Shown here in pieces: positions 7,019 through 62,277 of a stretch of 64,000 nt of DNA. The position numbers were made by a program, and so were the translations under genes. The stretch's first letter is position 1, and every line of letters begins with the position of its first letter. The stretch spans positions 26,875-90,874 of the forward strand of contig CAYQDB010000001.1 in the NCBI GenBank assembly GCA_964416195.1. Direction: 5' to 3'. The notes under the pieces are model-generated. The model was not told the origin of the DNA. It worked only from the letters and a program-made list of their open reading frames with translations, and ran no database searches. Source of the DNA: an uncultured Ignavibacteriales bacterium (lineage in GTDB: Bacteria; Zixibacteria; MSB-5A5; GN15; FEB-12).

Positions 7019-7050
7019 TATCGCGATGACAACATACGTGACAATCGAAT

Positions 7051-7087
7051 GCGGTGAGAGTTTTGTGCTCTTACCGCTTGTTTTTTT
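7051..7087 (+). terminator. Rho-independent terminator after ackA
   Basis: GCGGTGAGAG-loop-CTCTTACCGC stem followed by a T-run. Confidence 0.8.
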
Positions 7088-7313
7088 CCGAGACACATAT
7101 CTACAACTGACGTGACGCACGTATTGGAACTGGGGCTTTAAGTGAGTGACTCCAGCTCCCCATGAGCTGTATACATCCAATCTGTTGTTGCTTCTTGAAT
7201 CAAGAGGTATTAATTGGATGAGAGAGTTGCCTCCCGCGACGGGCGTGAGGAAAGAATGCAAGACTCTGCCATGCGAAGGGATATGTCAAATGTATTTCGA
7301 GGCTCTATGACGT

Positions 7314-8342: not shown

Positions 8343-8368
8343 TACTTGAAGGTTGGTGATAGTAGCTC

Positions 8369-12238: not shown

Positions 12239-12310
12239 CGCGTAGGGCGGGGGCTTGTCTCCCGCCAATAGACGGCGGACGTAAAGCCCGCCGCTACGCG
12301 GAGTTGGAGA
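12239..12310. repeat. GTAG-type REP-like element, copy 1
   Basis: CGCGTAGGGCGGGGGCTTGTCTCCCGCC...CGGCGGACGTAAAGCCCGCCGCTACGCGGAGTT nearly identical to 41090-41173. Confidence 0.85.
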
Positions 12311-12387: not shown

Positions 12388-12488
12388 ACGGGAGCGGCAC
12401 AAGGCCGCCCCCTACGCGTTGGTTTTAGTGTGGCGTCAGGTTACTCTGCCTGACGCCTTCTTGTGCTTGGCAGATGTCCACATCTGCC
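12388..12488. repeat. Cluster of REP-like hairpins downstream of the FG-GAP gene
   Basis: ...GGCCGCCCCCTACG; GGCGTCAGG-loop-CCTGACGCC; GGCAGATGTCCACATCTGCC. Confidence 0.7.
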
Positions 12489-14614: not shown

Positions 14615-14638
14615 TACGACTTTCCTTTCCAACAAGTT

Positions 14639-15157: not shown

Positions 15158-16429
15158 ATGAGTTGGTTACCAAAGAGCCAAAAGAATGACAGTCCTGATT
15201 GGAGTCGGTACAATGGGCTGGCGGCAGCAGTGAGGTCACCGGGCGCGGGTCGTTTCCAGACTGCCGACAGACTGCACTCAATGCTCAAGCTGTCGGTAAG
15301 TGACATACAATCCGGGCGGTATCGTACTCTTTTGTACCGCTTTTTGACCGATAACATCCCGGTCGTCAACGCCTGTATCTGGACCTGGGGCAGACTGTCG
15401 GCAGCTCCGGGGGCGTTCAAGGTCATCGATTGCACAGATGACAAACTCCGGGAGAAAACAGGTCACCGGCTGGAGCAGCTATCGCAACGCCTGTCTGTAA
15501 ATGCCTCGGGTAATCCCGTGGGTCTGGTAACGTTTCTGACCGAACTGTTTACCAGTCTGTACCGAGACGGCGTTTTTGGTGGTTTTTTGACAGTGTCTAA
15601 AGATGCCTCCGGAGTGGATAGGTTTGTCAGTGTTGACGCCACTGACTTGAGGTGGGAAGATACAGACGGCAGCCCACATCTTATCCTGGATCAAGAGACC
15701 GGTAGCCTCAAGCTGAATCGCAGCGATTTCTATTACATTCCTCTCAACGGCGGTCTCTCTGAGCCTCTGGGGCGGTCAATGCTGAAGGCTGTGCCTTTCG
15801 TATCCTTTATTGAGCAGCAACTGGTTGACGATATGCGGCGTGCCAGTCACAACTCTGGTTTCCACCGCCTTCACGTCAAGATCAAGCCGCCGGAGAGGAC
15901 AGCAGGCGAGTCGGACACCGCTTACATAGACCGCATAAACGGCTACTTCGATTCGACCGTGTCGATGATAAAATCGTGCAATGTCGACGACAACCCGGTC
16001 ACGTGGGACAATGTGGCGATTGAACATATCGGTCCGAGTAGTTCCCGTAGCATCACCAATAGCTGGTTTTTCAATCACCGGGCGATGATTGAAGACATCT
16101 GCTCCGGAACTAACCTGTCGCCATTCCTGCTGGGCTATTCCTACGGTGCTACTACCACCTGGTCAGCCTTCAAATTTGACATCGTCATGCGGCAAGTGAG
16201 GTCGGTCCAGGCGGAAGTGGCTCACTTCCTTGAGTGGATAGGCAACATTGATCTGGCTCTGGCTGGGTATAATGCAAAATGCCAGTTCATGTTTGACAAT
16301 ACGTTTGCCTACCAGGCGGCGGATAAGGCGGCTATCGAATCCAGCCGGGTCGACAATATCCTCAAGCTGTATAATGCCGGGCTGGTGGACGAAGAGGCTG
16401 CCCGCGAAAAAGCCGGGGAACTGATATAG
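15158..16429 (+). CDS. Phage portal protein
   Basis: ~420 aa; YRFLTDNIPVVNACI, PLGRSMLKAVPF and ICSGTNLSPFLLG segments match portal architecture; adjacent to TerL; AAAGGA RBS. Confidence 0.75.
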   Translation: MSWLPKSQKNDSPDWSRYNGLAAAVRSPGAGRFQTADRLHSMLKLSVSDIQSGRYRTLLYRFLTDNIPVVNACIWTWGRLSAAPGAFKVIDCTDDKLREKTGHRLEQLSQRLSVNASGNPVGLVTFLTELFTSLYRDGVFGGFLTVSKDASGVDRFVSVDATDLRWEDTDGSPHLILDQETGSLKLNRSDFYYIPLNGGLSEPLGRSMLKAVPFVSFIEQQLVDDMRRASHNSGFHRLHVKIKPPERTAGESDTAYIDRINGYFDSTVSMIKSCNVDDNPVTWDNVAIEHIGPSSSRSITNSWFFNHRAMIEDICSGTNLSPFLLGYSYGATTTWSAFKFDIVMRQVRSVQAEVAHFLEWIGNIDLALAGYNAKCQFMFDNTFAYQAADKAAIESSRVDNILKLYNAGLVDEEAAREKAGELI

Positions 16430-17763
16430 CCAGCGAGATTGACGCCATCGACTGGCGGCGAGGTTTTTTCGATCCTGGTTACTTTGCGGAGGCTGTCTTA
16501 GGAGTCAACCTTCACGATGGTCAGAAGAAATGGCTTGAGAACTCGCACCACCGGGAAAACATTCTGGTGACCGGCAACCGCTGGGGGAAATCGTTTGTAT
16601 CAGCGGTCAAGATCGTCCATCATGCCTTGTACCGTCCCCGCGAACTGAGGTTTGACGCCAGTGGCAAGTATCGAATAGCCACAGCTTCAATAACCCAGGA
16701 TCAGGCCAACATTGTCTTTAACCAGGTCGTCAGACTGGTTAGGCAGTCACCAGTGGTGGAGCCGCTTCTTACGAACCTTATCAGGACCCCTTATCCGAGA
16801 TTAGAATTTGGCAATGGGGCAACTATTGAGGCGCGCTCCACACAGAACCGGGGGGAGTACCTGCTGGGGCATGACTACGACCTTTTCATATTCGATGAAG
16901 TAGCCTTTGAATCCGATCCGGAATACGTGGTCGAAGAGGTTATCCAGATGCGCTTAGCCGACCGGGAGGGGAGGCTTGACTTAGTGTCGACTCCCAACGG
17001 CAGAAACTGGTTCTACCGGCGAGCCAGAGAAGTTATCGAGGGCAAGCGTGACGGCTACTTTCAGTCAGGTGACAGCCGGGAGAATATGTACATCTCACGG
17101 GATTTCCTCGAAGACAGGTTGAAATACTTTTCAGATAGACGGGTTCAGCAGAACATCATGGGTCAGTTCGTCGATTCCGGAGGAGAGATTCTCAAAGGTG
17201 AGTATGTCGACGCTGCTTTGATGCATTATAATGAAATAGAAGGAACGCTTAGAGGGATTAAAGGAACATCGTTCTTGTCGGGGTGGGATCTGGCTCGAAA
17301 GAGAACGGCTACGGTGGGGCTAACGGTTGAAGTAGCCGATGGTTTGGCGAGGGTTGTCTCTCTGGAACGGTTCAGAATGTTTGACTGGAATGTTGTTATT
17401 GAGAAGATCAAGCAGCGGCAATTGGAATACCCTGGTCAGCTTATTATTGACGCTACCGGTCTGGGAGATGTCGTCGTGGAGCAGCTTAAAGAGTTCAATC
17501 CGACAGCGGTTATTTTCACTCCGGCCACTAAAGCGGAACTGCTCACCAATGTCGAGTTGATGCACGCCAGAAATCAGATTGTCTACGAGCGCTGGGAGTT
17601 GCCGGACGGGCCGGGGAAGATTTGGTCGCTGGAGGATGAACTTCGCCAGGCGCGCTGGGATGACAACAATGAGTGTGATGCTTTAATGGCTTTAGCTCTG
17701 GCCCTGTGGCCGCTGCGTAAAAAGAGCGACTTGTCGCCCGCGCCGAGGGTGGGGAGGGTGTGA
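16426..17763 (+). CDS. Terminase large subunit (ATPase + RNase H-like nuclease)
   Basis: Walker A VTGNRWGKS, Walker B FIFDEVAF, coupling motif VSTPNGRNWF, nuclease GWDLAR / IDATGLG / DECDALMA; conserved N-terminus extends upstream of the ORF-track GTG 16567 to about ATA 16426. Confidence 0.9.
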   Translation: MASEIDAIDWRRGFFDPGYFAEAVLGVNLHDGQKKWLENSHHRENILVTGNRWGKSFVSAVKIVHHALYRPRELRFDASGKYRIATASITQDQANIVFNQVVRLVRQSPVVEPLLTNLIRTPYPRLEFGNGATIEARSTQNRGEYLLGHDYDLFIFDEVAFESDPEYVVEEVIQMRLADREGRLDLVSTPNGRNWFYRRAREVIEGKRDGYFQSGDSRENMYISRDFLEDRLKYFSDRRVQQNIMGQFVDSGGEILKGEYVDAALMHYNEIEGTLRGIKGTSFLSGWDLARKRTATVGLTVEVADGLARVVSLERFRMFDWNVVIEKIKQRQLEYPGQLIIDATGLGDVVVEQLKEFNPTAVIFTPATKAELLTNVELMHARNQIVYERWELPDGPGKIWSLEDELRQARWDDNNECDALMALALALWPLRKKSDLSPAPRVGRV

Positions 17764-17849
17764 GGAAGCTTTGCTCGTCAAAAGCGCCCTTCGAAGCTCA
17801 GGATAGGTAGGGCTTTCGATCTACGAATGTCCTACGGAGCAAATGGAGA

Positions 17850-17885
17850 AACGCCCTTTAAGGGGAGGTAGACTTAAAAGGCGTT
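17850..17885. terminator. Stem-loop between convergent TerL and PEP-CTERM genes
   Basis: AACGCCCTTTAAG-loop-CTTAAAAGGCGTT imperfect inverted repeat. Confidence 0.5.
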
Positions 17886-17917
17886 CCGGGGGTAGAGAGG
17901 ATTGGGAAGAACGTTTT

Positions 17918-18241
17918 TTAAGCTTTCCTACGGCGCACCAAACGGATGACACCCAGCCCGGAAGCTAACAGGATCAAGGTCGACGGCTCTGGAATCTCGG
18001 GTGGAGTTGATGGTTCCTGTGAGTCATAGGCCTGGTAGTCGTCGGGAGACTGGCAAGTATTCTGACTATAGGAGTACCAATCGGGTGAGCTATTATTCAG
18101 GCTACCATTTCCGTTCACGTTGCCGGGTGGAATATTCAACCCGTAGACATCGTCAAAAGTCACTGACAGAACCAGAATAATGATAACAAGTCCAAGCAGC
18201 CACTTGAGCCCGTGTCTCTTGTCTCGCATATATACCGTCAT
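17918..18241 (-). CDS. Small PEP-CTERM sorting-domain protein
   Basis: N-terminal hydrophobic helix, N/S/Q/P-rich middle, C-terminal IPEPSTLILLASGLGVIRLVRRRKA; AAAGGA RBS. Confidence 0.85.
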   Translation of the reverse strand: MTVYMRDKRHGLKWLLGLVIIILVLSVTFDDVYGLNIPPGNVNGNGSLNNSSPDWYSYSQNTCQSPDDYQAYDSQEPSTPPEIPEPSTLILLASGLGVIRLVRRRKA

Positions 18242-18498
18242 AAAAAGTCCTTTCTGCGCTTACGTCATCAATCTATTAGCGCCAATACAGTTTGTAGCAA
18301 TGCCCATGCCCGCATGGAACCACAAGTCCGGACGTGGCGGTAACCTGTTAGCTGAACATAAGTTATCAGAATCATATACACTCAATATAAACCGTATTGG
18401 CACCACAATAATTCGCAAGTTTTTGCGCAAAAAGGGGAGAAACCTGTCGTTGAATGCTTACGCTGTACTTTGTTGTAAAGGAAGCAGTTGGAGGTACG

Positions 18499-20016
18499 AT
18501 GGGTGCCAGTTTAGGCAGGATAACAGCTCGTCTGGTGCAGCCGGCAGACGAGGTATTCTCACCAGATTTGGTGGAGTTGATAAACAAGAATATCAACCCG
18601 CCAACGGCCGTGACTAAATCGGATGTCTATATCGGGGCGATGTATGTCGTCTCAGATGAGGTAAACAGCTTCGGAGGAAGATTCCCGGTTGAGGAGCATA
18701 AACATCTGGCCAGTCTGCTTGTCGATTCGCCGGTCATGGCGGGACACCGCAAAGACAGGCTCCCTATAGGGAGGAACTTCCACGCCATCGTGGTTGAGCG
18801 GGATGGAAAGAGCTGGGTAAAAAGCTATTTCTACTGGTTGAAAAGCACCGAAGGAGCCGAGGCGCTGAGGAAGAACATCGATGGCGGTATCTACAAAGAA
18901 TGCTCCATCGGTTTTACATTCCTATTTCCGGAGTGCTCTATCTGCAAAAAAGACATCCGCACTTGCCCCCACGAACCCCTCCAGAGCTACTCGGCGAGTG
19001 GCGATCACGACAGCGTCATCTGCCACTTCAATTACCGTAAGATCGAGCGGGTTTTGGAAACCTCACTGGTCTACCGCGGGTCAGTGCCGGACACGTCAGT
19101 TTCAAGGGAACTAGCAGTTGTCGGTGGCAGAGAAGCAGATGGATACACCGCTCGTCCTGACCGGGTGACACTCATCAACAGCCTTTCGGAACTTGAACCT
19201 AAAGAAGAGTACCTGCTGGTTCCATTCTACGAGTCACTTCCGGTAATGGTTACTCTCAAAAAAGGCACATTGCGCCTGCGTCGACCTAACGGCGAACCGA
19301 TCGGCAGCGAAATATGCTCGGGCTTTCCAATCAGACGCCCGCTTGAAATGGATCGGGCCTACGGGCACCTGGTAGCCTACCGCGGCCGCGAACGCTGTTC
19401 ACTAGAGCAGTTGGAACGGTACCTGACGGGGCGCCCAAGTCCAGTCACGCGGTTGGAGATAAAACTGTTTCCACCTACCGGTCTGGCCGTGGCAAAAGGG
19501 AGTGACGACACTGCACCCAACAGGATCCAACTTATCCGGCACAGCATTACGAGAGTAAGCAATCTCGATAACTCTGCCCGCTCGATCATGACCCGTGACG
19601 GAGTGCGGCTCTGGCCACTGGGCAGCAACCCGTTGCAGTTTGCCGGTTACCAGTACCGCCCATCTAAACAGGATGCAGTCAAAGATGGAAGTTATACACT
19701 GACCTGTAACAGTAGCAGTCCCTTCGCTACTCTTGCGCTCGCGGACTCAGGCCGCATCGAGATGTTTCGGATAAGTCAATTCAACCTGGCCAGACTGCTC
19801 AGAGGGGGGAGGTTTATTGCAGATAAGGCGGAGGTTCGATCAGTTAAGGCGCCGCCGGGTGACAGGAGGACTACCCAGGGACAGATAGTATCGCTGGTCA
19901 ATCGCGATGAAGGAATTGCCGCGGATTTGACGGGACCTTTGTCGGGCAGGTTTATTTTGAGACCGGCGAGGCTTGACGGGCAGAGACGATACTTATTTTA
20001 CAGGATTGCTTCCTAA
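18499..20016 (+). CDS. HK97-type prohead protease fused to degenerate ATP-dependent ligase-like and LigD phosphoesterase-like domains
   Basis: PVMAGH, IYKECSIGF, CSIC...CPH and ETSLVYRGS (protease); C-terminal half carries degenerate ligase motifs in order; GGAGG RBS before ATG 18499. Confidence 0.7.
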   Translation: MGASLGRITARLVQPADEVFSPDLVELINKNINPPTAVTKSDVYIGAMYVVSDEVNSFGGRFPVEEHKHLASLLVDSPVMAGHRKDRLPIGRNFHAIVVERDGKSWVKSYFYWLKSTEGAEALRKNIDGGIYKECSIGFTFLFPECSICKKDIRTCPHEPLQSYSASGDHDSVICHFNYRKIERVLETSLVYRGSVPDTSVSRELAVVGGREADGYTARPDRVTLINSLSELEPKEEYLLVPFYESLPVMVTLKKGTLRLRRPNGEPIGSEICSGFPIRRPLEMDRAYGHLVAYRGRERCSLEQLERYLTGRPSPVTRLEIKLFPPTGLAVAKGSDDTAPNRIQLIRHSITRVSNLDNSARSIMTRDGVRLWPLGSNPLQFAGYQYRPSKQDAVKDGSYTLTCNSSSPFATLALADSGRIEMFRISQFNLARLLRGGRFIADKAEVRSVKAPPGDRRTTQGQIVSLVNRDEGIAADLTGPLSGRFILRPARLDGQRRYLFYRIAS

Positions 20017-20322
20017 CGGATATCGACCGGGCTCAAGATACTGTTGGGGCCACCCTCGAGGTGCAACTTCACCAGCCCTACCGTCAGAGAGTAATACTCC
20101 CTGCTCTGAACAATCAGGGGTAGTAACGGTAATGCCGTATGCGGAGCCAACAGAAACAATCGTGTTTGTCTGGAGGTAGTTAAGGGTGCGGTTGTTTGCA
20201 AACCCGAGCAGGCTGGAGCCGTCGAGATGTTCAAGCGGGTAGACTATTACGTCATCTTCACCGCAACCGAGCAGAGAACATCCAGCTAAACCCCAATTGT
20301 GAAAGCTGGAAAACCTAGACAC
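19993..20322 (-). CDS. Hypothetical small lipoprotein-like protein (possibly truncated)
   Basis: Perfect AAGGAGGT RBS before GTG; LLGC-GEDD lipobox-like motif. Confidence 0.45.
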   Translation of the reverse strand: MSRFSSFHNWGLAGCSLLGCGEDDVIVYPLEHLDGSSLLGFANNRTLNYLQTNTIVSVGSAYGITVTTPDCSEQGVLLSDGRAGEVAPRGWPQQYLEPGRYPLGSNPVK

Positions 20323-20383
20323 AGTACCTCCTTCCCTAAATAGAATGAAGCCCTAAGCATTTCAAAAAACTTGGGAGGACACG

Positions 20384-20695
20384 ATGTATAGTATTCATGG
20401 TGAGCGAGGGATTCAGTTGACCGGACAACTAATCAATCTGCTAACGATCGTCGTTGGAATCGCAGCGGCCTACTTCCTTACTATTCAGTCACTGAAAACT
20501 GAGCTGGAGACCAAGGCGGAAGGCGCCGTGGTGGAAGTGCTTGACAAGAAACTTGCCGGTTTTGAGGTGATCCTGAAGGAGGGAGTCGTTGGTAGAGAGC
20601 AGTTCTTTCGCTTCTCAAAGGATATCGAAGCGCGATTGACGCGAATTGAACAGTATCTAAAAGATCAATCGGGGGAGCACATTGGAAGACCATAA
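20384..20695 (+). CDS. Single-TM coiled-coil protein (holin/XhlA-like accessory)
   Basis: GGGAGG RBS; one TM helix LINLLTIVVGIAAAYFL then a heptad-rich tail. Confidence 0.55.
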   Translation: MYSIHGERGIQLTGQLINLLTIVVGIAAAYFLTIQSLKTELETKAEGAVVEVLDKKLAGFEVILKEGVVGREQFFRFSKDIEARLTRIEQYLKDQSGEHIGRP

Positions 20696-21095
20696 CAAAC
20701 AGAACGCGCATGTCAATGAATTGGCTGATTCGTTGACCGATGACAAAATGTCTCTCATAGATTTCGATCGGCTAAAACAGTACCTGGCAGAAACGGCAAA
20801 GACTCATAATGAACTCCGGGAAGTACGGAGTGATCTCGGCGTTTTGCGCTGTGACTATATCAACCGTATCGGAGGGATGGTCAAGGCGATAGCGGCGGTG
20901 AATCGTCATCCCGACGGATGGGAAACCGCCCTGACGTACTTGGAGAACCTGCCGTCCTTGAGCGCCGGCGAGCTTGTTGAGCAATATCGGAAAACGGCAG
21001 CTCGCTTCCGCGATGCCTTTCCTACTAGCTTTGGATTAGCACCGAATAGGAAACGGGGCAACGACGGGTTTAAGGACCTAAGAGTTTACAAGTAG
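20682..21095 (+). CDS. Putative capsid scaffolding protein
   Basis: Helical coiled coil directly before decoration and MCP genes; GGGGAG RBS before TTG. Confidence 0.5.
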   Translation: MEDHNKQNAHVNELADSLTDDKMSLIDFDRLKQYLAETAKTHNELREVRSDLGVLRCDYINRIGGMVKAIAAVNRHPDGWETALTYLENLPSLSAGELVEQYRKTAARFRDAFPTSFGLAPNRKRGNDGFKDLRVYK

Positions 21096-21244
21096 ACCTA
21101 TAGACTTAGAGGGATCTTACATCCCGATCAGGGGGATACACTCCCGGTCACACTATTGAACGGGGCAGATGAGGACTCGCCTCTGGCGAGCCGCCCACAA
21201 GATCCGCCTCTGGCGGACCGTGCATGAAATGTAAAGGAGATGCT

Positions 21245-21664
21245 ATGACAGTAAGAGACCAAAACCTTGAAGCCATTGCACCTGTGCTGGCTACGTTTAA
21301 GATCAAGCAGACCGGCGGCGTCGATGACCTGAAAGATGCCAATATCGGTGAGCCAGTGACCCTAACCGGGAATAACGAGGTCGGTCCAATTGGCAGCGGA
21401 GATCAGTTGCTGGGCAAGCTGATCGCCCTCACGTTGACCGACAACGATGATGGCGATCGCCTGGCGACCGTTCAGGTTGGCGGCATTTGTCGTCTTCCTA
21501 TCTCCTCAACCTACCCGCAGGTAGGTAACCGTGTTGTCGGCGGAAGTTCCGCCACCGTGAAGCAGGCGCCTACCGTGGCATCGGACCCGGCAGGGGGCAA
21601 CATTGCCAGGGGGACGGTGCTTGAGGTCAACGGAACCACTGACTGTGTGATTCTGCTCAATTAG
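21245..21664 (+). CDS. Head decoration (cement) protein, DUF2190-like
   Basis: ~140 aa, Gly-rich beta protein (GEPVTLTGNNEV, ATVQVGGICRLP) immediately upstream of MCP; AAAGGAG RBS. Confidence 0.7.
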   Translation: MTVRDQNLEAIAPVLATFKIKQTGGVDDLKDANIGEPVTLTGNNEVGPIGSGDQLLGKLIALTLTDNDDGDRLATVQVGGICRLPISSTYPQVGNRVVGGSSATVKQAPTVASDPAGGNIARGTVLEVNGTTDCVILLN

Positions 21665-21676
21665 AAAGGAACAACC

Positions 21677-22780
21677 ATGGACTTTAACAAATTCCTGCAA
21701 TCGGCGGTCTATGCCGGTATGAAGCACGGGCTTGATTCGGACAACATGACCGGCCCGGTCGATTTGGGCCGCGCCGCCGCAATCGAAGTAAACAAGGACC
21801 TCTACCTCGAAGCTGAAGCGCGGGGTCTGTCTCTGTCCGAGCTGCTGGAGCTCGACGAATTCGATCCCACGCCGCCTGGCTGTCCACTTGACGCTTTCGA
21901 ACGCCAGCTTGCCCTGGCAGGGATACGACTGAGCGGCAAGTCGCCTATGACGGTTGAGCAACTCTACCAGCAAGCCCCTACCCTGTTGCCGGAGTTCATG
22001 CTCCGTGAGATCAAGCGAGGACAGGCGATGCGTCCGGAACTCGGCCGCCTGGTAGCCAACACCACCAGCGTCGCCAGCAACAGCTACACGCCTTTCTTCA
22101 TCAATACCGCCGACGACACCAAGTTCTCTATGCGGCCGATCGGCGAGGGGGCTGATATTCCCCAGCTTGTGGTTACCGAACAGACGCACGCGGTCAGTGT
22201 GGCTGACTATGGCCTGGCCCTGAAGACCAGCTACAAGGCTCTTCGCTACCGGACCACTTCCCAGTTCCGAGTGCTGTTGTGGTATATCGGGTTTAAGATC
22301 CAGACTGACAAGATAGGGATGCTGGTCGGCACCATCATCAACGGAGACGGCAATGACAACGCCGCTACGGTGATCAACACTGCCGCCAGCGGAACTCTTA
22401 CCTACGACGATCTAATCAGCCTCTGGTCACAGTTCAGCCCCTTTGAGATGAACACTATCATCTGCCATGTCAACCAGATGAAGGAGATCCTGACTCTGGA
22501 TGAGTTCAAGGACCCGATGGCCGGCTACCGCTTCCAGCAGACGGGCGATCTGTTCAGCCCCTTGGGAGCAACCTTAGTGCGCTCCGACGAGATAGCCACC
22601 GATCTGGTGCTGGGACTGGACAAGCGGTTTGGTGTTGAAGAAGTCATTACCCAGCCGTTGATGGTCGAGTATGACAAGGTCATCGAGCAACGATTCGAAG
22701 AGGCAGTCATCTCGGAATCTGTCACATACGCCAAGGTAATTAAGGAAGCCTCGGTCGTTCTCGACACAGTATGGAGTTAG
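21677..22780 (+). CDS. HK97-fold major capsid protein
   Basis: 367 aa; LLPEF, PIGEGADIP, YGLALKTSYKAL, IINGDGND and VEYDKVIEQ segments typical of HK97-fold MCPs; AAAGGA RBS. Confidence 0.85.
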   Translation: MDFNKFLQSAVYAGMKHGLDSDNMTGPVDLGRAAAIEVNKDLYLEAEARGLSLSELLELDEFDPTPPGCPLDAFERQLALAGIRLSGKSPMTVEQLYQQAPTLLPEFMLREIKRGQAMRPELGRLVANTTSVASNSYTPFFINTADDTKFSMRPIGEGADIPQLVVTEQTHAVSVADYGLALKTSYKALRYRTTSQFRVLLWYIGFKIQTDKIGMLVGTIINGDGNDNAATVINTAASGTLTYDDLISLWSQFSPFEMNTIICHVNQMKEILTLDEFKDPMAGYRFQQTGDLFSPLGATLVRSDEIATDLVLGLDKRFGVEEVITQPLMVEYDKVIEQRFEEAVISESVTYAKVIKEASVVLDTVWS

Positions 22781-22787
22781 TTCTTGT

Positions 22788-22812
22788 GGGGACTCGGGTG
22801 GTCCGAGTCCCC
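22788..22812 (+). terminator. Strong hairpin right after the MCP gene (terminator or stabiliser)
   Basis: GGGGACTCGG-GTGGT-CCGAGTCCCC, 10-bp perfect stem. Confidence 0.7.
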
Positions 22813-22831
22813 CTTAACTTACAGAGGAACG

Positions 22832-24244
22832 ATGCAGAAGAAAATAACTGAGACAACCGGAAGCTACGGTCTTGGGATGCCGCCGGGACGCAAACTCCTG
22901 AGGGTATCTTCCGGTCAGTACGCCGGGCGGCTGGTGGCTATCATGCAAACGTCCTCCGGCGAGATCAAGTACTCCTATGCCGATCGGCCGTACACATCCT
23001 GGTCATCTCTGACTGTAATCGCTACCGCCGCCGCCGATCAGCCGTGCGACTGCGTGATGGACAATGATGGCCATATTCATGTAGTTTATTCTGAGAATTC
23101 CACCGAGTACCTTGTTACCAGGAAACTGACCTTCTCCGGCGGGACCTGGTCAGTGGGGTCCAAAGTGACCGTATACAATGGCTATCCGTCGCGGTATCCC
23201 TCCCTTGCTATCGAGACAGGGGGTAAGCTCTGGGTGAGTTGGACCCGGATCGACGGCGGCGTCCGCTACGCGCATGCCAAGTCATCTACGGATGGCGGGG
23301 CCACCTGGGGCAGCGGGCCATCGGACTCCGGCGACGCTCTGACCGCGGGAGCGTCATCGGCCTACTCCAAAGTCCTCGTTGGACCTAACGATATACACGT
23401 TGTCTACACCAACGGCGGATTGAACCTTTCTATCCGTTCCCAACCGATTGCGGGAGGAAACTGGACAGGTGAGTATAATATAGCCACCGGCACTACATTC
23501 GATCAGCATTTTGACGCTGCCATCTCGTCTGACGGTTCGTTGGGGGTGGTGTTCGACCACGGTCAGTTGAAGTACCGCGAACACAATGGTGTCAGTTGGG
23601 GTTCGGTTGTTACCCTGGACAGCGATGGAGGAGACTTCCCACAGCTACTATTCAGCGATGGCGTGCCCGCTATTGTTTACCTCTCTTCCCTGGCTTCAGA
23701 TCAGGTCCTGGTGAAATGTACAACTCGCGCTACCGGGAGCTTTTCCTCGCCCGCTGTTCTGGACGAGCGTGCCAAGCAGTTCGATTCGGTAACGCTATAC
23801 GACGCCTCCGCCGCCAGCTATGCCGACCTGACCAACGCCGCCGGAAGCAGCAGCACCGCAGATATATATCATCCCAACTCCAGCGTTCTTATCAAGGACA
23901 GCGGCGACATTATCTATCTGGGCATGGACCAGCGCTTCCGCTACGTAAAGTTTCTTCTCTCGACGGCCGGCAGCGGCGGCACGGTTGTTTACAGTTACTG
24001 GGACGGATCCAACTGGAAGGCTTTCACACCTACCGGCGGTTCTTTTAACCTGGACTCAACGGACAAAAACCTGTTGCTGTGGGATGATTACGTGAGTATG
24101 CCCGGCGACTGGCAAAAGAAGCTGGTGAACGGCCAGACAAGGTTCTGGCTGAAAATCGAGGTCGACTCGGCCTTTACCACGGGACCCATCGGAAGTCAGA
24201 TTACGGCTGCATCCGACCTGCAGGCGTTCATTGTAAGGAGGTAG
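22832..24244 (+). CDS. BNR/Asp-box beta-propeller protein, putative virion structural protein
   Basis: Asp-box AKSSTDGGATW, repeated Trp/Gly blades, C-terminal YWDGSNW / FWLKIEV domain; no signal peptide. Confidence 0.6.
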   Translation: MQKKITETTGSYGLGMPPGRKLLRVSSGQYAGRLVAIMQTSSGEIKYSYADRPYTSWSSLTVIATAAADQPCDCVMDNDGHIHVVYSENSTEYLVTRKLTFSGGTWSVGSKVTVYNGYPSRYPSLAIETGGKLWVSWTRIDGGVRYAHAKSSTDGGATWGSGPSDSGDALTAGASSAYSKVLVGPNDIHVVYTNGGLNLSIRSQPIAGGNWTGEYNIATGTTFDQHFDAAISSDGSLGVVFDHGQLKYREHNGVSWGSVVTLDSDGGDFPQLLFSDGVPAIVYLSSLASDQVLVKCTTRATGSFSSPAVLDERAKQFDSVTLYDASAASYADLTNAAGSSSTADIYHPNSSVLIKDSGDIIYLGMDQRFRYVKFLLSTAGSGGTVVYSYWDGSNWKAFTPTGGSFNLDSTDKNLLLWDDYVSMPGDWQKKLVNGQTRFWLKIEVDSAFTTGPIGSQITAASDLQAFIVRR

Positions 24245-24247
24245 AGC

Positions 24248-25057
24248 GTGTCGTACACGAACGTTGAACTGGTCAGGCACCATCTGGTCGCAACCTTCCC
24301 GACCCAGGAGAAGGTTTATGATCAACCGGTGATTCCTGAGAGTGATTATGTCACATTTTTCAACGGGCCGGTTGAGTCTTCGTCGGTTACAGTCAAATCC
24401 ATTCACAGTAACACGCCGACACGGGCGACGATCACTCTCGACAATGAAAAAACCTCACTGGCTTCTTTGCCGCTGGTGCGCGGATCGGTAGTGGTGGCAT
24501 CCGACAGCTCTCTGGGGACTGTGTATGCTGAGAATGTCGATTATATAATCGACTATGTTCTGGGAGACCTGACAATCAAAGAGGGTGGCGGATTGACAAC
24601 AGGTCAAAGCGTTACCGTTTGGTATCAGAGCTACTTTGTATACACCCTCGGGAACGACTACCAGCTCGACGGCAATCGTGGTCGCCTCAAGAGGCTCTCC
24701 GGTGGAGAGATCGCCTCGGGTGAGACAGTGTACCTTGACTACGCGCCGGTCTACCAGAGCTTCAACGAGGAGATTCTCGCTAAAGCGGTGCTGGAGGCCA
24801 ATGGACTGATCGAAAGTGCAGTGGACCCGGACGGCCAATTCGGCGCCGACCCGGTGCTTCAGGCGTGTGCCACCTACCGAGCCTTAGAGATTATCTGCCG
24901 CGCCTCGGCAGCCCGAGAACTTTCCAGTCTGCGAGGAGAAGATCGCACCGCTCTGGCCTGGATAAAGCTGGCCGAGACTTACGCCGAGCGATCGGAGCAA
25001 CTGCTGAGTTCATTCCGCCCGCCGTTCGATGGTCCCACACCGCCGGTGCACAGTTAA
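24248..25057 (+). CDS. Head-tail adaptor-like protein with inserted beta-domains
   Basis: N-terminal YTNVELVR and C-terminal helical AVLEANGLIES...LQACATYRALEI resemble gp6/gp36-type adaptors; two internal YxxxxDY repeats. Confidence 0.5.
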   Translation: MSYTNVELVRHHLVATFPTQEKVYDQPVIPESDYVTFFNGPVESSSVTVKSIHSNTPTRATITLDNEKTSLASLPLVRGSVVVASDSSLGTVYAENVDYIIDYVLGDLTIKEGGGLTTGQSVTVWYQSYFVYTLGNDYQLDGNRGRLKRLSGGEIASGETVYLDYAPVYQSFNEEILAKAVLEANGLIESAVDPDGQFGADPVLQACATYRALEIICRASAARELSSLRGEDRTALAWIKLAETYAERSEQLLSSFRPPFDGPTPPVHS

Positions 25058-25067
25058 AGGAGGACAA

Positions 25068-25442
25068 ATGACTACAGGATTTGAAAGAGTGACGGCTCGC
25101 AGGGCCTGGTTTGTACCCGGTTTCGTCGTCTGGGGGCTTCCTGTTTGGGAGGAGATCGAATTCCTGACCATAGAGAAGGTCGCATCCGACAAGACAGTAC
25201 TGTATGGCTCTCAAGATATTGGTGGCACGGCGCAGGAGGTAACCTTCAGCGACTTAACCGATCATCGGGGAAACCAGTTGCCATCAATTATCGCATCGCC
25301 GCGGGTTATCATTCGTGGTCGAGGCAGAGACTCGGCTTTTATCGTCAGTGAAGAATCCGAAATGAAATTCAAGATTGCCCGCGACCCGGAAGCCGCAGGA
25401 CCAGTAACGGCCGACCTTCTGGTTGTTGAGTTGGGTAGCTAA
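25068..25442 (+). CDS. Hypothetical beta-rich protein (possible fibre-tip/lectin-like domain)
   Basis: AAAGGAGG RBS; 124 aa; VTF...SPRVII...FKI...DLLVVE pattern. Confidence 0.55.
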   Translation: MTTGFERVTARRAWFVPGFVVWGLPVWEEIEFLTIEKVASDKTVLYGSQDIGGTAQEVTFSDLTDHRGNQLPSIIASPRVIIRGRGRDSAFIVSEESEMKFKIARDPEAAGPVTADLLVVELGS

Positions 25443-25443
25443 G

Positions 25444-25740
25444 ATGCCTCGCGCCGGACGGAACTCGGCCAAGTTCCCAGATGATCTGTCAATGCTTGAT
25501 GATCTGATCAGGCGTTACTATCGGGAACTCCTAAGAAGCGTTGAGGAACATGTCAAACTGGGAGATTTTATCAAGATGATCGAATTGAGACGCAAGCTGG
25601 CTCCCAGCGACTCCGAACAGAAGCGGTTCTGGAGAATGCTGGAGAGAATACGTCAAGAAGCACTGCGACAAGACGACGTAAAACCACCCACGCACAAAAA
25701 ACGGGTCTCAAAAAAGCGGCAGACCAGGGAGCCTAAATGA
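25444..25740 (+). CDS. Small helical basic protein, candidate terminase small subunit
   Basis: 98 aa, helical core KLGDFIKMIELRRKL and basic tail KKRVSKKRQ; coupled to neighbours. Confidence 0.4.
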   Translation: MPRAGRNSAKFPDDLSMLDDLIRRYYRELLRSVEEHVKLGDFIKMIELRRKLAPSDSEQKRFWRMLERIRQEALRQDDVKPPTHKKRVSKKRQTREPK

Positions 25741-26507
25741 AAGGAAGGACAATCTGCGCGATCATCATAGCGCTTGTCACACCTGTGTGCAGTATCCCGG
25801 CTGCGGTAGACACGCTGAAAGGGACATCGGATATTGAGGACTGCACTATCTACTCGTGGGCTAACTGCAATTCCGAAATCACGGGTGAAGACTGCCGTCG
25901 GTACAATTCGGGTTCGATTACGAGTCTGCAAGTGGGTGTCTCAGGTGTAAGCACCGAGCGGCGAACATTGCTCAGCCTTCCCGGTTGGGATAGAACCATG
26001 CCAGATTCTTCGAAGTTGTTGCTATACTGCAAGGGTGAGGCCGACGGAGTCGATCGCAAAATTTTCCTCTATCCGGTGACTACGCAGTTTTACGAGGGGA
26101 CGGAGCTGTCGTACAACCTCGGCGATTACCCCGACCCAGACAGTGGAGCCACCTGGAACCATGCCTGGCTCGATGTAGGTGATGGAGATTCTTCCGTTTG
26201 GTCTTCTGCGGGAGGTGACTACACCACTGCCATAGCTTGTACCGTTACAGTAACTGACACCGGTCAGTACTTCGCTTTTGGCGATTTCAACAGGATCCTC
26301 AATTACTGGGATACTTCCGGTAGTGCCTACGGTCTGATTTTGATAAACGAAAATGCTTTCCCAGGCAATACCACCATGAAAACCTTCAACGCCACCGAGG
26401 GCGACAGCGCCAGTGGTCCGTTGGTGATTCTATACTACGGTGGTGCTGCGGTTTCATGGCGGCTTCGTATGATAAAATCTCTTGGGAAGAACCAGCGTGG
26501 TGTTTAA
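25737..26507 (+). CDS. Secreted DNRLRE-domain protein
   Basis: Signal peptide; EDCTIY, ERRTLLSL, ATWNHAW, WSSAGGDY and GPLVILYY motifs. Confidence 0.7.
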   Translation: MKGRTICAIIIALVTPVCSIPAAVDTLKGTSDIEDCTIYSWANCNSEITGEDCRRYNSGSITSLQVGVSGVSTERRTLLSLPGWDRTMPDSSKLLLYCKGEADGVDRKIFLYPVTTQFYEGTELSYNLGDYPDPDSGATWNHAWLDVGDGDSSVWSSAGGDYTTAIACTVTVTDTGQYFAFGDFNRILNYWDTSGSAYGLILINENAFPGNTTMKTFNATEGDSASGPLVILYYGGAAVSWRLRMIKSLGKNQRGV

Positions 26508-26546
26508 TGATATTCATTTTGTGCAAGGTAAGCGATCATTGTTCAA

Positions 26547-26570
26547 GTCACCCTGAGCGGAGTCGAAGGG
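26547..26570. repeat. REP-like half-element GTCACCCTGAGCGGAGTCGAAGGG
   Basis: A degenerate complementary half (CCCTTCGAAGCTCAGGAT) lies at about 17787-17804. Confidence 0.6.
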
Positions 26571-26645
26571 TGATGAAAACAGTCAAAACTCAACCTACAG
26601 ATTAGTCAAAGCAATGGCTATAAGCAAAGGAGGATGTAACAAGAA

Positions 26646-27845
26646 ATGCAAACAGGGCCTATGCGAATCATTGCATTCACAATCGTCTTGATATTAACAG
26701 CGGCAACGTTGTCGGCATCAATTGTCAACAACTCAACCTCATCACCAACCGCCGAGGATTCGCTGTCGTTTGTTTTTTACTCACTGGACAGCATCGGCAA
26801 TCCGACGACAGCGGACTCGCTATATATCCTGGTAACAGGACCAACTGGAACGGTGGTATACAAAGACTCGGTAGCGTCTTCTGACAGCCGCATCACCTCC
26901 ACCACCGTCAGGGGAAAGCAGTTCTACTCGTTTGCGGAGCAGGTGTCCGATATTGACGGTTCGGGCGCTGCCGGACACTATGTTATCACCCTACTGGCCA
27001 AGAAAAACAACGGGGATCTTCTCACTCCGAATACATACTCGTTCCAGATCATCAGCGAGGAGCTGTCCGACCAGATAGCGCTCATAGGAGACTCCGTGTA
27101 TGTGAAGGGTGGGGCAGTCGATTCCAACCGCACGGAAATGGGCGGTTCAGGAGATTCCACGTCCATGGCTCGCTGGGTCTGGAACGCCCCTCAGATAAAC
27201 CACACTACAAGCGGCAGCTTCGGCAAGTATCTCGACACCGAGGTCTCAGGAATAAGCGGCGGCGCGGGGGCCTATTCATTCACGGTCGTAACCTTTGATT
27301 CTTCCGTCAGCCAGACCGTCCCACAGGCAGCCCTCGCGGTGCGTAATGTGAGCCAGACCTCGCTCATAGCAACCGGCAGAACCGGCAACGAGGGCACGGC
27401 AATGTTTAACCTCGATGCCGATAGCTTTGTCGTAGTGGCGACAGCCCCGGGCTATTCCTTTGACGCCTACGACACCATCGTCGTCAGCGGGACGGGAAGC
27501 GATACCATCTTCGGAGACCAGTTTGATCCGGGGTCTCCATCAGCACCGCAGTTGTGTCGCGTGTATGGTTTCCTGTACGATATCACCGGGCAGCCGGAAG
27601 AGGGGGCTTCGGTAACAGCATGTCTTCCTTCAGGGGTGGTGCAATATGTAGTAGTGGTTGTGTCACCCTACTCAGTTTCAACAACTACCGACAGCTCCGG
27701 TTACTTCTACCTCGACCTGATACCATCGGACTCACTCATCCCCCCCGGCACTAAGTACGAGTTTACGATAAGCCGTACCGATGGAACGATTCTCAGGCAA
27801 CGCCTAACAGTGCCTGATTCTACGCAATGGCGACTGACATGGTAG
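26646..27845 (+). CDS. Secreted beta-rich protein resembling phage fibre/structural proteins, with carboxypeptidase-regulatory-like domains
   Basis: Signal peptide MRIIAFTIVLILTAATLSA; VWNAPQINHTTSGSFGKYLD and TTDSSGYFYLDLIP motifs. Confidence 0.6.
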   Translation: MQTGPMRIIAFTIVLILTAATLSASIVNNSTSSPTAEDSLSFVFYSLDSIGNPTTADSLYILVTGPTGTVVYKDSVASSDSRITSTTVRGKQFYSFAEQVSDIDGSGAAGHYVITLLAKKNNGDLLTPNTYSFQIISEELSDQIALIGDSVYVKGGAVDSNRTEMGGSGDSTSMARWVWNAPQINHTTSGSFGKYLDTEVSGISGGAGAYSFTVVTFDSSVSQTVPQAALAVRNVSQTSLIATGRTGNEGTAMFNLDADSFVVVATAPGYSFDAYDTIVVSGTGSDTIFGDQFDPGSPSAPQLCRVYGFLYDITGQPEEGASVTACLPSGVVQYVVVVVSPYSVSTTTDSSGYFYLDLIPSDSLIPPGTKYEFTISRTDGTILRQRLTVPDSTQWRLTW

Positions 27846-27897
27846 AGTATCTCGGTAAAAGATAAACATTAACGATTTCAACAGAAGGAGGAACAAA

Positions 27898-28200
27898 GTG
27901 GAAGCACTATTGTCGGATCCGGGTTCATGGGTCGGTATATTGGGCTCAGTGGCGATGTTGCTGGCCGGCTTTGCCGCAAACAAGTATGTCATTCCCTTCC
28001 TCAAGGTAGGCAGAAGGCAGCAATACGCCCATTTCATTGCCACGATTGCTGATGAAGTAACCGATGATCTGAGGAACAAATACCCGGACAAGAAGTGGCT
28101 CAAGCACCTTGACGAGGCGGTCGACCGTTTGATTGCTATTTGCGGAATATCGTCGGAGATCGCCAGACGGGCGATCAGCGCTGCAGCGGCTCGCAAGTAG
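27898..28200 (+). CDS. Holin-like membrane protein (LL-H-like architecture)
   Basis: AAGGAGG RBS, GTG start, one N-terminal TM then helical charged tail; last gene of the cluster. Confidence 0.55.
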   Translation: MEALLSDPGSWVGILGSVAMLLAGFAANKYVIPFLKVGRRQQYAHFIATIADEVTDDLRNKYPDKKWLKHLDEAVDRLIAICGISSEIARRAISAAAARK

Positions 28201-28342: not shown

Positions 28343-29125
28343 TCACTCAGCTTCCTTCATGTTGGTCTCTGGAATATGAAAGCCACACATTGCAAACTGC
28401 TCAAGCAGATTCTTTGGTGAAGCCTCCCACTGCCCCCATTTCCGAGAAATATGTTCAGTCCACCCATAGTTGGTAAAAGTGAATGTTTCTTTACGGTCCG
28501 TTTCCAGAGGAATCTTGTAGTTTGCTTCGCGGTAGTAGTCCTGGGCAATATATCCTTCATCCATTTCCATCATCGCTTTAGTGATCATTTCCTCACTGAA
28601 CTCAGGGTATTTATCTTCAAAGAGAACAAAGTCCATAGGATATCGCGGTCGAGAAGCCGGGTTTTCCGCCGGGTATCCCATAGCTAATCGTACCAATGGG
28701 AACACACGTTTGGGCAACTCATACTCCTTTACGATTCTTTCAATTATATTAGGAAAGATTCCCAAAAAGCAGCTCCCCAATCCCAGACTCTCAGCCGCCA
28801 TTACCATATTTTCTGCCATCAAAGAGGCATCTTGAATTCCAAACAGCAGCAAGAGAAGGTCATTCGTAACCATCTGCCAGTGTCGTCTGGCCATGATGTG
28901 TTCCAGCTTATGGAAATCGACACAAATCGTAAACAACAAGGGTGCTTTGAAGGGATGTTTGTCTTTATTGCGTGACAGCAATAGACTGTATAGCTGAGAA
29001 GCAAACGGAGCCTGTTGTCCGGCTCGAACAATGGCTGCTATGACCTCGTCAGATGGTGATTCATCATTGTATTGACGAATTGATTTGCGATTAAGCATAG
29101 CTTCGATTATTGGGTTATTGATCAT
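28343..29125 (-). CDS. Nitroreductase family protein (NfsA/FRP-like)
   Basis: NRKSIRQY, AGQQAPFAS, AAESLGLGSCFLG, LAMGYP and SRPRYP motifs. Confidence 0.9.
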   Translation of the reverse strand: MINNPIIEAMLNRKSIRQYNDESPSDEVIAAIVRAGQQAPFASQLYSLLLSRNKDKHPFKAPLLFTICVDFHKLEHIMARRHWQMVTNDLLLLLFGIQDASLMAENMVMAAESLGLGSCFLGIFPNIIERIVKEYELPKRVFPLVRLAMGYPAENPASRPRYPMDFVLFEDKYPEFSEEMITKAMMEMDEGYIAQDYYREANYKIPLETDRKETFTFTNYGWTEHISRKWGQWEASPKNLLEQFAMCGFHIPETNMKEAE

Positions 29126-41089: not shown

Positions 41090-41173
41090 CGCGTAGGGTG
41101 GGGGCTTGTCTCCCGCCTAAAAGTGGCGATGCCACCGGCGGACGTAAAGCCCGCCGCTACGCGGAGTTAGAGA
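41090..41173. repeat. GTAG-type REP-like element, copy 2
   Basis: Near-identical arms to 12239-12310 with a different spacer; followed by a GGCAGATGTGGACATGTGCC copy at 41211-41237. Confidence 0.85.
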
Positions 41174-41359
41174 ATGGCGACCTCATTTGGTGTAGATCTA
41201 ATCTTGTGCGCGGCAGATGTGGACATGTGCCAGGCACAGGTTTTTTAGCACGCCCCGAGTTTGGGAATGCCACCCGTCGGCGGACGTGGTAACTACCCGA
41301 CTTGGTAGTCACGAATACCTTGACAGGCCGGAGAAAAAGTCGGTTTTTGTGGTAGTGCT

Positions 41360-60090: not shown

Positions 60091-60270
60091 TCAGAAACCC
60101 CTTGACATTTTGACCTACGTTTTTTATACTTGAATAGTATTATCAATAGGATGTACAGCCGATTTCGTCTCAGCAAAGGTCACTTTATCGTACCAGCGCT
60201 ATAGTTTTGACCGACTTAAAAAAACCTTAAACAAGAGGAGAAGTTATGTCAAAATGCAGCGCCTCACGTA
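60091..60270 (+). repeat. Duplicated promoter/leader/start region (copy 1; copy 2 at about 62238-62420)
   Basis: Direct alignment by eye; includes an identical 37-nt block. Confidence 0.9.
60102..60130 (+). promoter_or_regulatory. Sigma-70 promoter
   Basis: TTGACA-17 nt-TATACT. Confidence 0.8.
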
Positions 60271-62248: not shown

Positions 62249-62277
62249 TTGACATTTCGACTTACGTTTTTTATAAT
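62249..62277 (+). promoter_or_regulatory. Consensus sigma-70 promoter
   Basis: TTGACA-17 nt-TATAAT. Confidence 0.85.

Follow-up and report, generated by a model that had tools for sequence, protein, structure and literature searches.

The 64,000-nucleotide stretch of contig CAYQDB010000001.1 analyzed here, called the window below, carries at 15.1-28.2 kb a compact run of plus-strand genes encoding a phage-type portal protein, a large terminase (TerL), a protease-like protein and an HK97-type major capsid protein (MCP). This cluster looks like an undescribed virus-like particle system owned by its host. It has very probably been domesticated and is kept under selection, and in the favored reading it is neither a prophage nor a satellite. 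The fuller proposal, namely that it is an ancient domesticated phage head-and-packaging module of Zixibacteria, i.e., a "viriform" resembling gene transfer agents (GTAs) and working through the whole mechanism presented below, is judged fairly probable. Zixibacteria are an uncultured phylum, common in sediments and groundwater, and to our knowledge only a handful of independent GTA families are known, all of them tailed and all from cultured organisms. If this proposal is true, the cluster would represent a new GTA-like family, with a head-and-packaging module inherited across an uncultured phylum, and a testable case of a cell keeping a viral DNA-packaging machine without a tail.

Gene content of the cluster

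Hidden Markov model (HMM) scans against PHROG and Pfam gave sequence-family matches for five cluster genes, i.e., portal, TerL, g520, g146 and MCP, and the gene inventory of a preliminary description, made from the sequence alone, turned out to be essentially right. The genes form two co-located blocks, portal-TerL and g520 to g105, on either side of a host PEP-CTERM gene:

15158-16429, plus strand: portal protein (phrog_3753, E 3.8e-21)
16426-17763, plus strand: large terminase TerL (phrog_2, E 6.5e-29; Terminase_6N PF03237, E 1.2e-8)
18499-20016, plus strand: g520, prohead-protease-like protein (phrog_16951, E 3.8e-11)
20384-20695, plus strand: g103, with one transmembrane segment and a coiled coil (66 loci, 44-75% identity)
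20682-21095, plus strand: g137a, helical protein between the protease-like protein and MCP (70 loci)
21224-21664, plus strand: g146, virion structural protein directly upstream of MCP (phrog_4588, E 2.7e-6)
21677-22780, plus strand: HK97-type MCP (phrog_3922, E 4.3e-61; PF25209, E 1.1e-5)
22832-24244, plus strand: g486, sialidase-like propeller (AlphaFold2 model, pLDDT 94.3, pTM 0.88)
24248-25057, plus strand: g269 (AlphaFold2 model, pLDDT 84.8)
25068-25442, plus strand: g137b, 124 amino acids from Met14 (kept in 56 loci)
25444-25740, plus strand: g105, small helical protein with a basic C-terminus (50 loci, low identity)

The portal and MCP named in the preliminary description were thus confirmed by their family matches. 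The genes located after MCP (g486, g269, g137b and g105, followed by g256, g399 and g100) had no above-threshold sequence-family match in these scans. As previously described from the sequence, integrase, repressor, replication, tube, sheath, tape-measure, baseplate and endolysin genes gave zero matches, in the cluster or in the whole 64 kb, and the repeat search found neither a flanking direct repeat nor att-like repeats. More generally, none of the features of a temperate prophage (integrase, immunity, replication, tail, lysis, att sites) was detected in the 64 kb, the remainder of which is ordinary chromosome according to the same scans. No tRNA gene was found in the window, and an Rfam scan of 10-35 kb revealed no RNA family.

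Distribution, inheritance and selection

More than 900 MCP homologues were found, the top 120 being 71-100% identical, 364-372 amino acids long and encoded on contigs of up to 3.18 Mb. The resemblance to Oscillospiraceae/Clostridia put forward in the preliminary description was wrong: the close MCP relatives with a taxon label are mostly Zixibacteria, and the host is a member of this phylum, not of a clostridial lineage. When one genome per GTDB species was scanned, an MCP relative was encoded in 287 species genomes. Every window protein was then searched by tblastn against the best 80 of these MCP loci (MCP 68-89% identical; each locus from an assembly of its own, including four complete chromosomes). 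Wherever the contig reached far enough, gene order and flanks agreed, with one copy per assembly in these best 80 genomes, so that the cluster occupies the same locus across the phylum. In this common arrangement, a Cas4-like nuclease, h_9716 (a secreted protein of 190 amino acids) and a TPR protein precede the cluster. Portal and TerL, the minus-strand PEP-CTERM gene, then g520, g103, g137a, g146, MCP, g486, g269, g137b and g105 follow in this order, and downstream come a variable secreted protein, g399, g100, a minus-strand dockerin protein and a response regulator with an HD-GYP domain (RR-HD-GYP).

MCP distances were correlated with the distances of the flanking genes (Mantel r of 0.79 for RR-HD-GYP, 0.76 for the dockerin gene and 0.70 for the TPR gene, each with p = 0.001). 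This is also illustrated by the regression of MCP distance on dockerin distance (slope 0.42, intercept 0.03), in which no pair combined near-identical MCPs with divergent flanks. The vertical inheritance suggested in the preliminary description is therefore upheld by the shared locus and flanks, the co-divergence and the absence of discordant pairs, the flanking genes rather than a species tree being used as the yardstick. Besides, the ratios of non-synonymous to synonymous substitution rates (dN/dS) of the cluster genes, about 0.09-0.2, indicated purifying selection (TerL 0.087, g486 0.115, g399 0.127, MCP about 0.18 and g520 0.20), next to 0.146 for RR-HD-GYP and 0.165 for the dockerin gene in the flanks; synonymous sites being saturated in most pairs, these ratios are informative for the few closest pairs only. 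Across all homologues examined, about six genuine internal stops were found, some of them in long-read assemblies. The cluster has a GC content of 53.4%, versus 51.5% elsewhere in the window. An assembly chimera is ruled out by the inheritance and selection results taken together.

The cluster was also found, with MCPs 73-81% identical, in metagenome-assembled genomes (MAGs) labeled as Thermoplasmata archaeon, Deferrimicrobium, Acidoferrum, Flavobacteriaceae, Calditrichaeota and "Ignavibacteriales" (loci L010, L009, L024, L041 and others). These are probably mis-binned contigs or mislabeled bins. The presence of the cluster in public MAGs labeled archaea, Flavobacteriaceae or Acidobacteria would thus be a probable marker of mis-binned or mislabeled Zixibacterial contigs, and virus-prediction and binning tools will tend to call the locus a provirus.

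Comparison with phages and related systems

The distribution in 287 species genomes stands against a near absence from viral collections, and is not the sporadic, virome-linked distribution of a prophage. Among the 2.9 million contigs of IMG/VR, a single 11-kb fragment of this type was found (MCP identity 60%); the other matches were at most 36% identical and shared just the portal, the protease domain and MCP. In a phage collection of 50,697 records there were five matches only, 33-35% identical. Among 1.84 billion representatives of 50%-identity clusters, the family amounted to one full-length representative plus fragments, and the next MCPs were 42-44% identical. One intermediate MCP relative, in the 38-44% identity range, belongs to Candidatus Hinthialibacter.

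The nearest phage with this head module is an uncultured myovirus (IMG/VR_UViG_3300028388_003025, hereafter L083), in which portal, a phrog_16951 protein, a phrog_4588 protein and MCP occur in this order and are followed by a tail sheath gene. The ancestor of the cluster was hence probably a tailed phage, the tail module of which has since been lost or moved. Myovirus-type phages such as L083 and the human-gut "Bacteriophage sp." (e.g., MT835508) have the same head-module families in the same order. In contrast to the cluster, from which their proteins differ strongly (24-36% identity), they carry tail genes, including one for the sheath, their TerL is a different one, and they have no counterpart of g486, g269, g137b and g105. 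In L083 the protease-like domain is fused into a protein of 913 amino acids (6085-8826), the middle of which matches an ATP-dependent DNA ligase PHROG (E 1.1e-18). The g520 profile aligns to this protein up to residue 465.

In its proposed function, the cluster comes nearest to GTAs among known systems, and two of the properties that define GTAs and other viriforms were found in it, i.e., a chromosomal structural cluster without selfish modules and vertical inheritance under purifying selection. The comparison with RcGTA (PMC9953437, PMC11841831) is informative: both are chromosomal, phage-derived structural clusters without integration, replication and lysogeny genes, both are inherited vertically with lineage losses under purifying selection, host control being presumed, and both comprise TerL, portal, protease, an HK97-type MCP and an adaptor-like gene. 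The two nevertheless have independent origins, the MCP of the cluster being at most 44% identical to any sequence outside its clade and matching TIGR01554 below threshold. The cluster also belongs to a different phylum, has a sialidase-like propeller directly after MCP, and contains no recognizable small terminase and no tube, tape-measure or distal-tail gene in the locus; moreover, the Zixibacteria system is known here from its genes alone. Compared with the RcGTA order, portal precedes TerL and a host gene separates the two blocks. Judged from the isolation of the MCP clade, and with BaGTA, VSH-1 and VTA proteins not directly compared, the cluster showed no homology to any of the GTA families described so far.

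A sporadic distribution and genes for integrase, regulators and replication characterize the capsid-forming phage-inducible chromosomal islands (cf-PICIs), which are mobile satellites. They share with the cluster a head-only set (MCP, portal, protease, packaging and connector genes) without tail genes, and this content suggests, in both cases, a tailless head possibly needing an external tail. The Zixibacteria cluster differs from them in having no integrase, regulator or replication gene, in its fixed site and in its co-divergence with the host. Encapsulins likewise are HK97-fold shell proteins encoded in cellular genomes, with cargo proteins that bear targeting peptides; they have no portal, terminase or prohead protease, whereas the Zixibacteria cluster has all three conserved. 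In a full-text search of a limited collection, no paper was found that ties Zixibacteria to a capsid cluster, a terminase-containing element or a GTA.

Packaging block

The portal reading frame opens at TTG 15140; ATG 15158, preceded by a AAGGAAAG ribosome-binding site, is likely the true start. Across about 40 Zixibacteria loci the portal is 49-72% identical. As stated in the preliminary description, the ATPase and nuclease motifs of TerL are intact: Walker A (TGNRWGKSF), Walker B (FDEVAF), the coupling motif STPNG and three RNase-H-type nuclease Asp motifs are kept in at least 95% of 41 sequences. Such conservation of the catalytic motifs argues that ATP-driven packaging and DNA cutting are selected activities.

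The start of TerL is unusual. The called reading frame places Walker A at residues 3-9 and is open upstream past the portal stop, from 16375, without any ATG, GTG or TTG start. In the window, TerL begins at ATA 16426, which overlaps the portal stop TAG 16427-16429 (ATATAG; junction 16424-16431). In the TerL frame, the portal stop is overlapped by ATA in 22 of the 42 loci (ATAA or ATAG) and by CTG, TTG or GTG in 11 (NTGA), and the distance from the portal stop to a conserved Trp of TerL is exactly 26 nt in 30 of the 42. A GGAG- or GGGA-like element is found 5-10 nt upstream in most junctions of the ATA type. The pairing of ATA with TAA or TAG, versus NTG with TGA, shows that start and stop covary while a 4-nt overlap is preserved. 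An ATA start overlapping the portal stop implies, as read from these alignments, that TerL would be translationally coupled to the portal. TerL would be made through termination-reinitiation, at a weak start, by the ribosomes translating the portal, leading to a low TerL-to-portal ratio. The RNA fold of the junction was no more stable than shuffled sequences (z = -0.57); a frameshift-stimulating RNA structure is therefore unsupported, and overlapped re-initiation fits better. This coupling would be a neat case of gene-dosage control, and with such a start standard gene callers truncate or miss this terminase.

Head block

The g520 reading frame opens at 18454, and the Met at position 16, kept in at least 90% of homologues, is likely the true start. 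The N-terminal part (about 215 amino acids) is a protease-like domain with a Cys/His zinc-ribbon insert, and the C-terminal part (about 300 amino acids) is poorly conserved. The motifs GHRKD..LP and ECSIGF are invariant, as are H98, S151, C161, C164, C171 and H173 (the four last forming a Cys3-His ribbon), His98 and Ser151 being separated by 53 residues. The phrog_16951 family lies between portal and MCP in the phage relatives too, and g520 was aligned to its L083 homologue with an hhalign probability of 99.7%. Profiles of the full-length protein and of its C-terminal part gave nothing significant against PDB sequences. The protease with His and Ser motifs of the preliminary description thus stands as regards motifs, family and position, and on these sequence features g520 is a candidate prohead protease, the C-terminus of which may act as a scaffold.

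The preliminary description also mentioned scaffold-like and decoration genes. By its position, g137a is a candidate scaffold; it evolves fast (median identity 37%) and, as for g105, no family match was found in Pfam, PHROG or homologue scans. The g146 protein is 63-92% identical across loci, its family (annotated "virion structural protein") and position being matched in L083; a decoration or cement role is a candidate one. For the small proteins g105, g137a, g103, g100 and g137b, homologues were scanned member by member against Pfam and PHROG and gave scattered weak matches only, such as phrog_462 "lipoprotein" for g103-type proteins (6 of the 69 pooled small proteins scanned). The gap between g520 and g103 is occupied by a minus-strand open reading frame of 109 amino acids (19993-20322), which has a GGAGG ribosome-binding site and encodes a lipobox-like LAGC. 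This gap is absent in loci L036 and L055, and the frame is hence a lineage-specific insertion of a small lipoprotein gene.

Genes downstream of the major capsid protein

The propeller gene seen in the preliminary description was confirmed by the high-confidence model of g486, which consists of a six-bladed beta-propeller and a C-terminal jelly-roll domain. The true start of g486 is Met17 of its reading frame, giving 470 amino acids as in its homologues, and the protein is cytoplasmic, without signal peptide. Foldseek retrieved the pseudaminidase 2w38 (E 1.7e-11), chain 9efk_M of the LME-1 portal-tail structure (E 2.6e-11), sialidases and fucose lectins, and in BFVD phage sialidase-domain and tail-fiber proteins; the g486 profile gave nothing significant against PDB sequences. 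One Asp-box is present and Arg33, Asp51, Arg249-Glu250, Arg299 and Tyr323 (numbered from Met17) are near-invariant. This Arg/Asp/Glu/Tyr series may parallel the catalytic set of sialidases. Since g486 is devoid of signal peptide and locked into a capsid operon, it would be particle-borne. On its predicted structure, it is a candidate glycan-binding or glycan-cleaving spike or, alternatively, a candidate nozzle-like protein.

The second role is suggested by the T7-like short tail of Legionella phage LME-1 (PMC12407071; PDB 9efk), with the order MCP, decoration, adaptor, nozzle resembling MCP, g486, g269 in the cluster. However, cellular sialidases and lectins are matched by g486 at least as well as chain M, with low TM-scores (0.37 and 0.25), g486 is much shorter than the 817 amino acids of its counterpart, a putative nozzle, and the cluster has neither internal core or ejection proteins nor a fiber gene devoid of signal peptide.

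In the g269 model, an Ig-like beta-sandwich lies between a helix at the N-terminus and a three-helix bundle at the C-terminus. Foldseek gave weak matches to Ig-like domains of phage tails and baseplates, to neck chains, among them 8vhx_G of phage Chi (prob 0.82), and to the T7 gp17 N-terminus. An HMM match below cutoff was obtained with NF052337, which represents the Ig-like portion of the tube protein of YSD1 (E 1e-11); nothing significant was found with the g269 profile in PDB sequences. From this modeled fold, a head-tail adaptor or neck protein with an Ig-like insert is plausible. The adaptor-like gene of the preliminary description is thus retained as a candidate for its neck-like architecture. 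Together with g486, g269 is also a candidate component of a stub tail. The g137b gene is called as 124 amino acids in another assembly too and has no PDB, PHROG or Pfam match; by position, it is a candidate head-completion or stopper protein. As a speculation, g105 may be a small-terminase-like or DNA-binding protein. Neither a small terminase nor an ejection protein was recognized in the cluster. A kinship of g269, g137b and g486 with the neck proteins located after MCP in L083 was rejected (hhalign probabilities all below 1%).

Regulatory elements and repeats

The preliminary description held that the cluster is broken into several units by promoters, hairpins and host repetitive extragenic palindromic (REP) elements. 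None of these divisions was borne out: at the thresholds used no REP element lies within 15158-28200, promoter-like sites occur at the chance level (9 found versus 9.6 expected), and terminator-like hairpins are mildly enriched (20 found versus 12.4 +/- 4.3 expected). REP-like repeats were located only outside the cluster (2778-2804, 12239-12310, 12462-12488 and 41090-41238), in the form of a GC-rich unit of about 72 nt and a 27-nt hairpin-forming unit near an FG-GAP/type IX secretion system (T9SS) gene.

One element could provide host control:

18422-18431, no strand: palindrome TTTGCGCAAA, core TTGCRCAA, between the divergently oriented PEP-CTERM gene and g520

Its general form is T(3-5)GCRCA(3-5), and TTTGCGCAAA is the sole exact copy in the 64 kb. 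In 30 of the 56 sequences, counting the window, the region preceding the head operon carries TTGNNCAA at a similar offset (-21 to -42). From its sequence and position, the palindrome is a candidate regulatory site of this operon, either an operator or a promoter element. A sigma-54 reading of the conserved GCA-N5-TTGC motif was discarded by eye, the spacing being one base short and the GG not conserved. A copy of TTTGCGCAAA with one mismatch is found at 26518-26527, upstream of g399.

Proposed function and alternative readings

According to the proposed mechanism, a host-controlled promoter, possibly acting via the TTGCGCAA palindrome, would turn the head operon on. Assembly on the portal ring would involve MCP, g146 and a scaffold, the latter being g137a, the g520 C-terminus or both, and the g520 protease would mature the shell. 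TerL, made in small amounts, would dock on the portal and package DNA by headful; since no small terminase was recognized, the cargo would probably be non-specific host DNA. The portal would be closed by g269 and perhaps g137b. Devoid of signal peptide, g486 would ride on the particle and bind or cleave nonulosonic-acid surface glycans of target cells. Through such particles, Zixibacteria might exchange genes or release DNA. In its boldest form, which is advanced tentatively, the proposal is that a virus-derived organelle under host regulation occurs throughout the phylum Zixibacteria. It would be a capsid with no tail, or almost none, that takes up cellular DNA without the help of a small terminase, exposes a sialidase-like enzyme on its surface and has its terminase dosage set by re-initiation at an ATA codon on the portal stop. 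If true, this organelle would be the sixth independent GTA-like viriform family, without precedent in the FCB superphylum and also in its lack of a tail module at the locus.

Several points weigh against a GTA-like module of this kind. The particles, the packaged DNA and the transfer are predictions read from genes, and the protease, scaffold, adaptor and stopper roles are candidate ones drawn from position, motifs and weak fold matches. No tail, ejection, small-terminase or endolysin gene was found in the locus, leaving delivery without a mechanism. The exported proteins g399 and g256 are unlikely virion parts, particle assembly being cytoplasmic. The tetranucleotide profile of the cluster is slightly off that of the window remainder (r of 0.845 versus 0.91-0.94). 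Furthermore, the cluster is widespread but dispensable. Among 52 metagenome loci anchored on the flank gene h_9716, 21 reached 4.5 kb or more towards the cluster; portal, TerL and other cluster genes are present in 14 of these, and 7 are without the cluster within 5-10 kb. The loci without the cluster form at least three groups: a clade sister to the lineage of the window, in which the TPR gene is cut to a 33-amino-acid remnant, the L142/L151 clade, and L134 (206-kb contig Ga0163152_10000034, 3162-10537), in which both capsid blocks are cleanly absent. The order in L134 is dockerin protein, g100, a 217-amino-acid protein, PEP-CTERM gene, TPR and h_9716, and reflects either a double deletion or a pre-insertion-like state. 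Partial losses were observed as well, in two complete Zixibacteria chromosomes. In CP070766 (L066, 6296-6463) the portal is lost and TerL is reduced to a 56-amino-acid remnant, the head genes being intact, and CP070796 (L072, 11153-12361) is cut in the middle of g486, everything downstream being gone. Portal-TerL is not adjacent to the head block in 4 of the 31 well-flanked loci.

Such missing parts, the lineages in which the site is without the cluster and the slightly different composition are what would be expected from a decaying, non-functional prophage remnant, or from an active phage or satellite repeatedly integrating at one site. This explanation is nevertheless very improbable: about 12 genes are intact at 40-90% identity across the phylum, with dN/dS of 0.1-0.2, the catalytic motifs and the covarying overlapped start and stop of TerL are conserved, and neither an integrase nor att repeats were found. 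Indeed, the intact genes, the co-divergence with the flanks (without near-identical MCPs on divergent flanks) and the near absence from viral collections together strongly disfavor an active phage, a satellite reintegrating at a single site and a neutral remnant.

A more serious alternative, which we regard as rather unlikely, is that the cluster belongs to a complete GTA with a tail, or to some other tailed machine of phage origin, the tail, lysis and small-terminase genes of which lie at other loci. The neck- or adaptor-like architecture of g269 implies an attachment below the portal, the head module has its nearest phage relative in a myovirus encoding a tail sheath, and a host gene already divides the cluster, whose flanks are rearranged in some lineages. 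There is also a precedent, as the head-spike, tail-fiber and lysis genes of RcGTA sit outside its main cluster. On the other hand, no tail gene was found in the 64 kb, nor within 10 kb on each side of MCP in the 80 loci as searched by homology to window proteins only, and g269, g137b and g486 have no detectable homology to the neck proteins of the myophage relative.

It is less probable still, in our opinion, that the capsid has been repurposed beyond gene transfer, e.g., as heads capturing the tails of infecting phages in the manner of cf-PICIs, a decoy or defense, DNA export into the biofilm matrix, or a DNA-free shell. The head-only content with an adaptor-like protein would be compatible with this, as in cf-PICIs, and so would the location among secreted and surface proteins (PEP-CTERM, dockerin, T9SS, g399), the conserved Cas4-like nuclease upstream and the head block of CP070766, intact despite the truncated TerL. 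However, the conservation of the portal and of the TerL motifs across the phylum argues for DNA packaging as the selected activity, and none of nine cluster proteins matched a PADLOC model, the sole match being that of the Cas4-like nuclease upstream.

Neighboring genes and other observations

The genes inserted between the two blocks or located beyond g105 are the following:

17918-18241, minus strand: small secreted PEP-CTERM protein (PF07589, E 3.3e-5; 45 loci)
25737-26507, plus strand: g256, secreted protein in a variable slot (17 loci only; weak DNRLRE-domain match)
26646-27845, plus strand: g399, exported multi-domain protein with a signal peptide and a carboxypeptidase-regulatory-like Ig domain (PF13620, E 1.2e-5, below cutoff)
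27898-28200, plus strand: g100, single-pass membrane protein (31 loci)

The position of the PEP-CTERM gene between the packaging and head blocks, on the opposite strand, is conserved. In other lineages, the slot between g105 and g399 is occupied by an unrelated secreted protein of 411-460 amino acids (L036, 13919-15301; L038, 14049-15284), and looks like a hot spot of surface-protein turnover. The g399 protein, 32-73% identical in 48 loci, had been considered fiber-like; with signal peptides visible in the window, L036 and L038, it is instead an exported protein, and its profile gave nothing significant against PDB sequences. Similarly, the holin-like nature attributed to g100 was abandoned, as no holin family was matched by the window protein and the gene is retained beside the dockerin gene in L134, which has no capsid gene at all. 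Since both persist in this capsid-less locus, the PEP-CTERM gene and g100 look like genes of the host neighborhood and are probably host genes.

The other genes of the 64 kb encode acetate kinase, a GT2 glycosyltransferase, a Cas4-like PD-(D/E)XK nuclease, TPR, FG-GAP/T9SS and dockerin proteins, a response regulator with HD-GYP, an M50 peptidase, an SMC-like ATPase, a sigma-70 factor, HtrA, PanB and HPPK. The FG-GAP gene (12500-14635) and a nitroreductase gene (28343-29125) are insertions, present in none of the 80 compared loci. The Cas4-like nuclease (412 amino acids, 8369-9607) is a conserved upstream neighbor in many Zixibacteria loci, with no CRISPR-Cas genes nearby. At 41360-44423, an SMC/SbcC-like ATPase of 802 amino acids is followed by a protein combining staphylococcal-nuclease and Ada zinc-binding domains, and the two may be a DNA-repair or defense pair. 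Finally, direct repeats at 60091-62720, 76-78% identical and spaced by 2147-2156 nt, indicate a tandem duplication of genes encoding dockerin-domain proteins.

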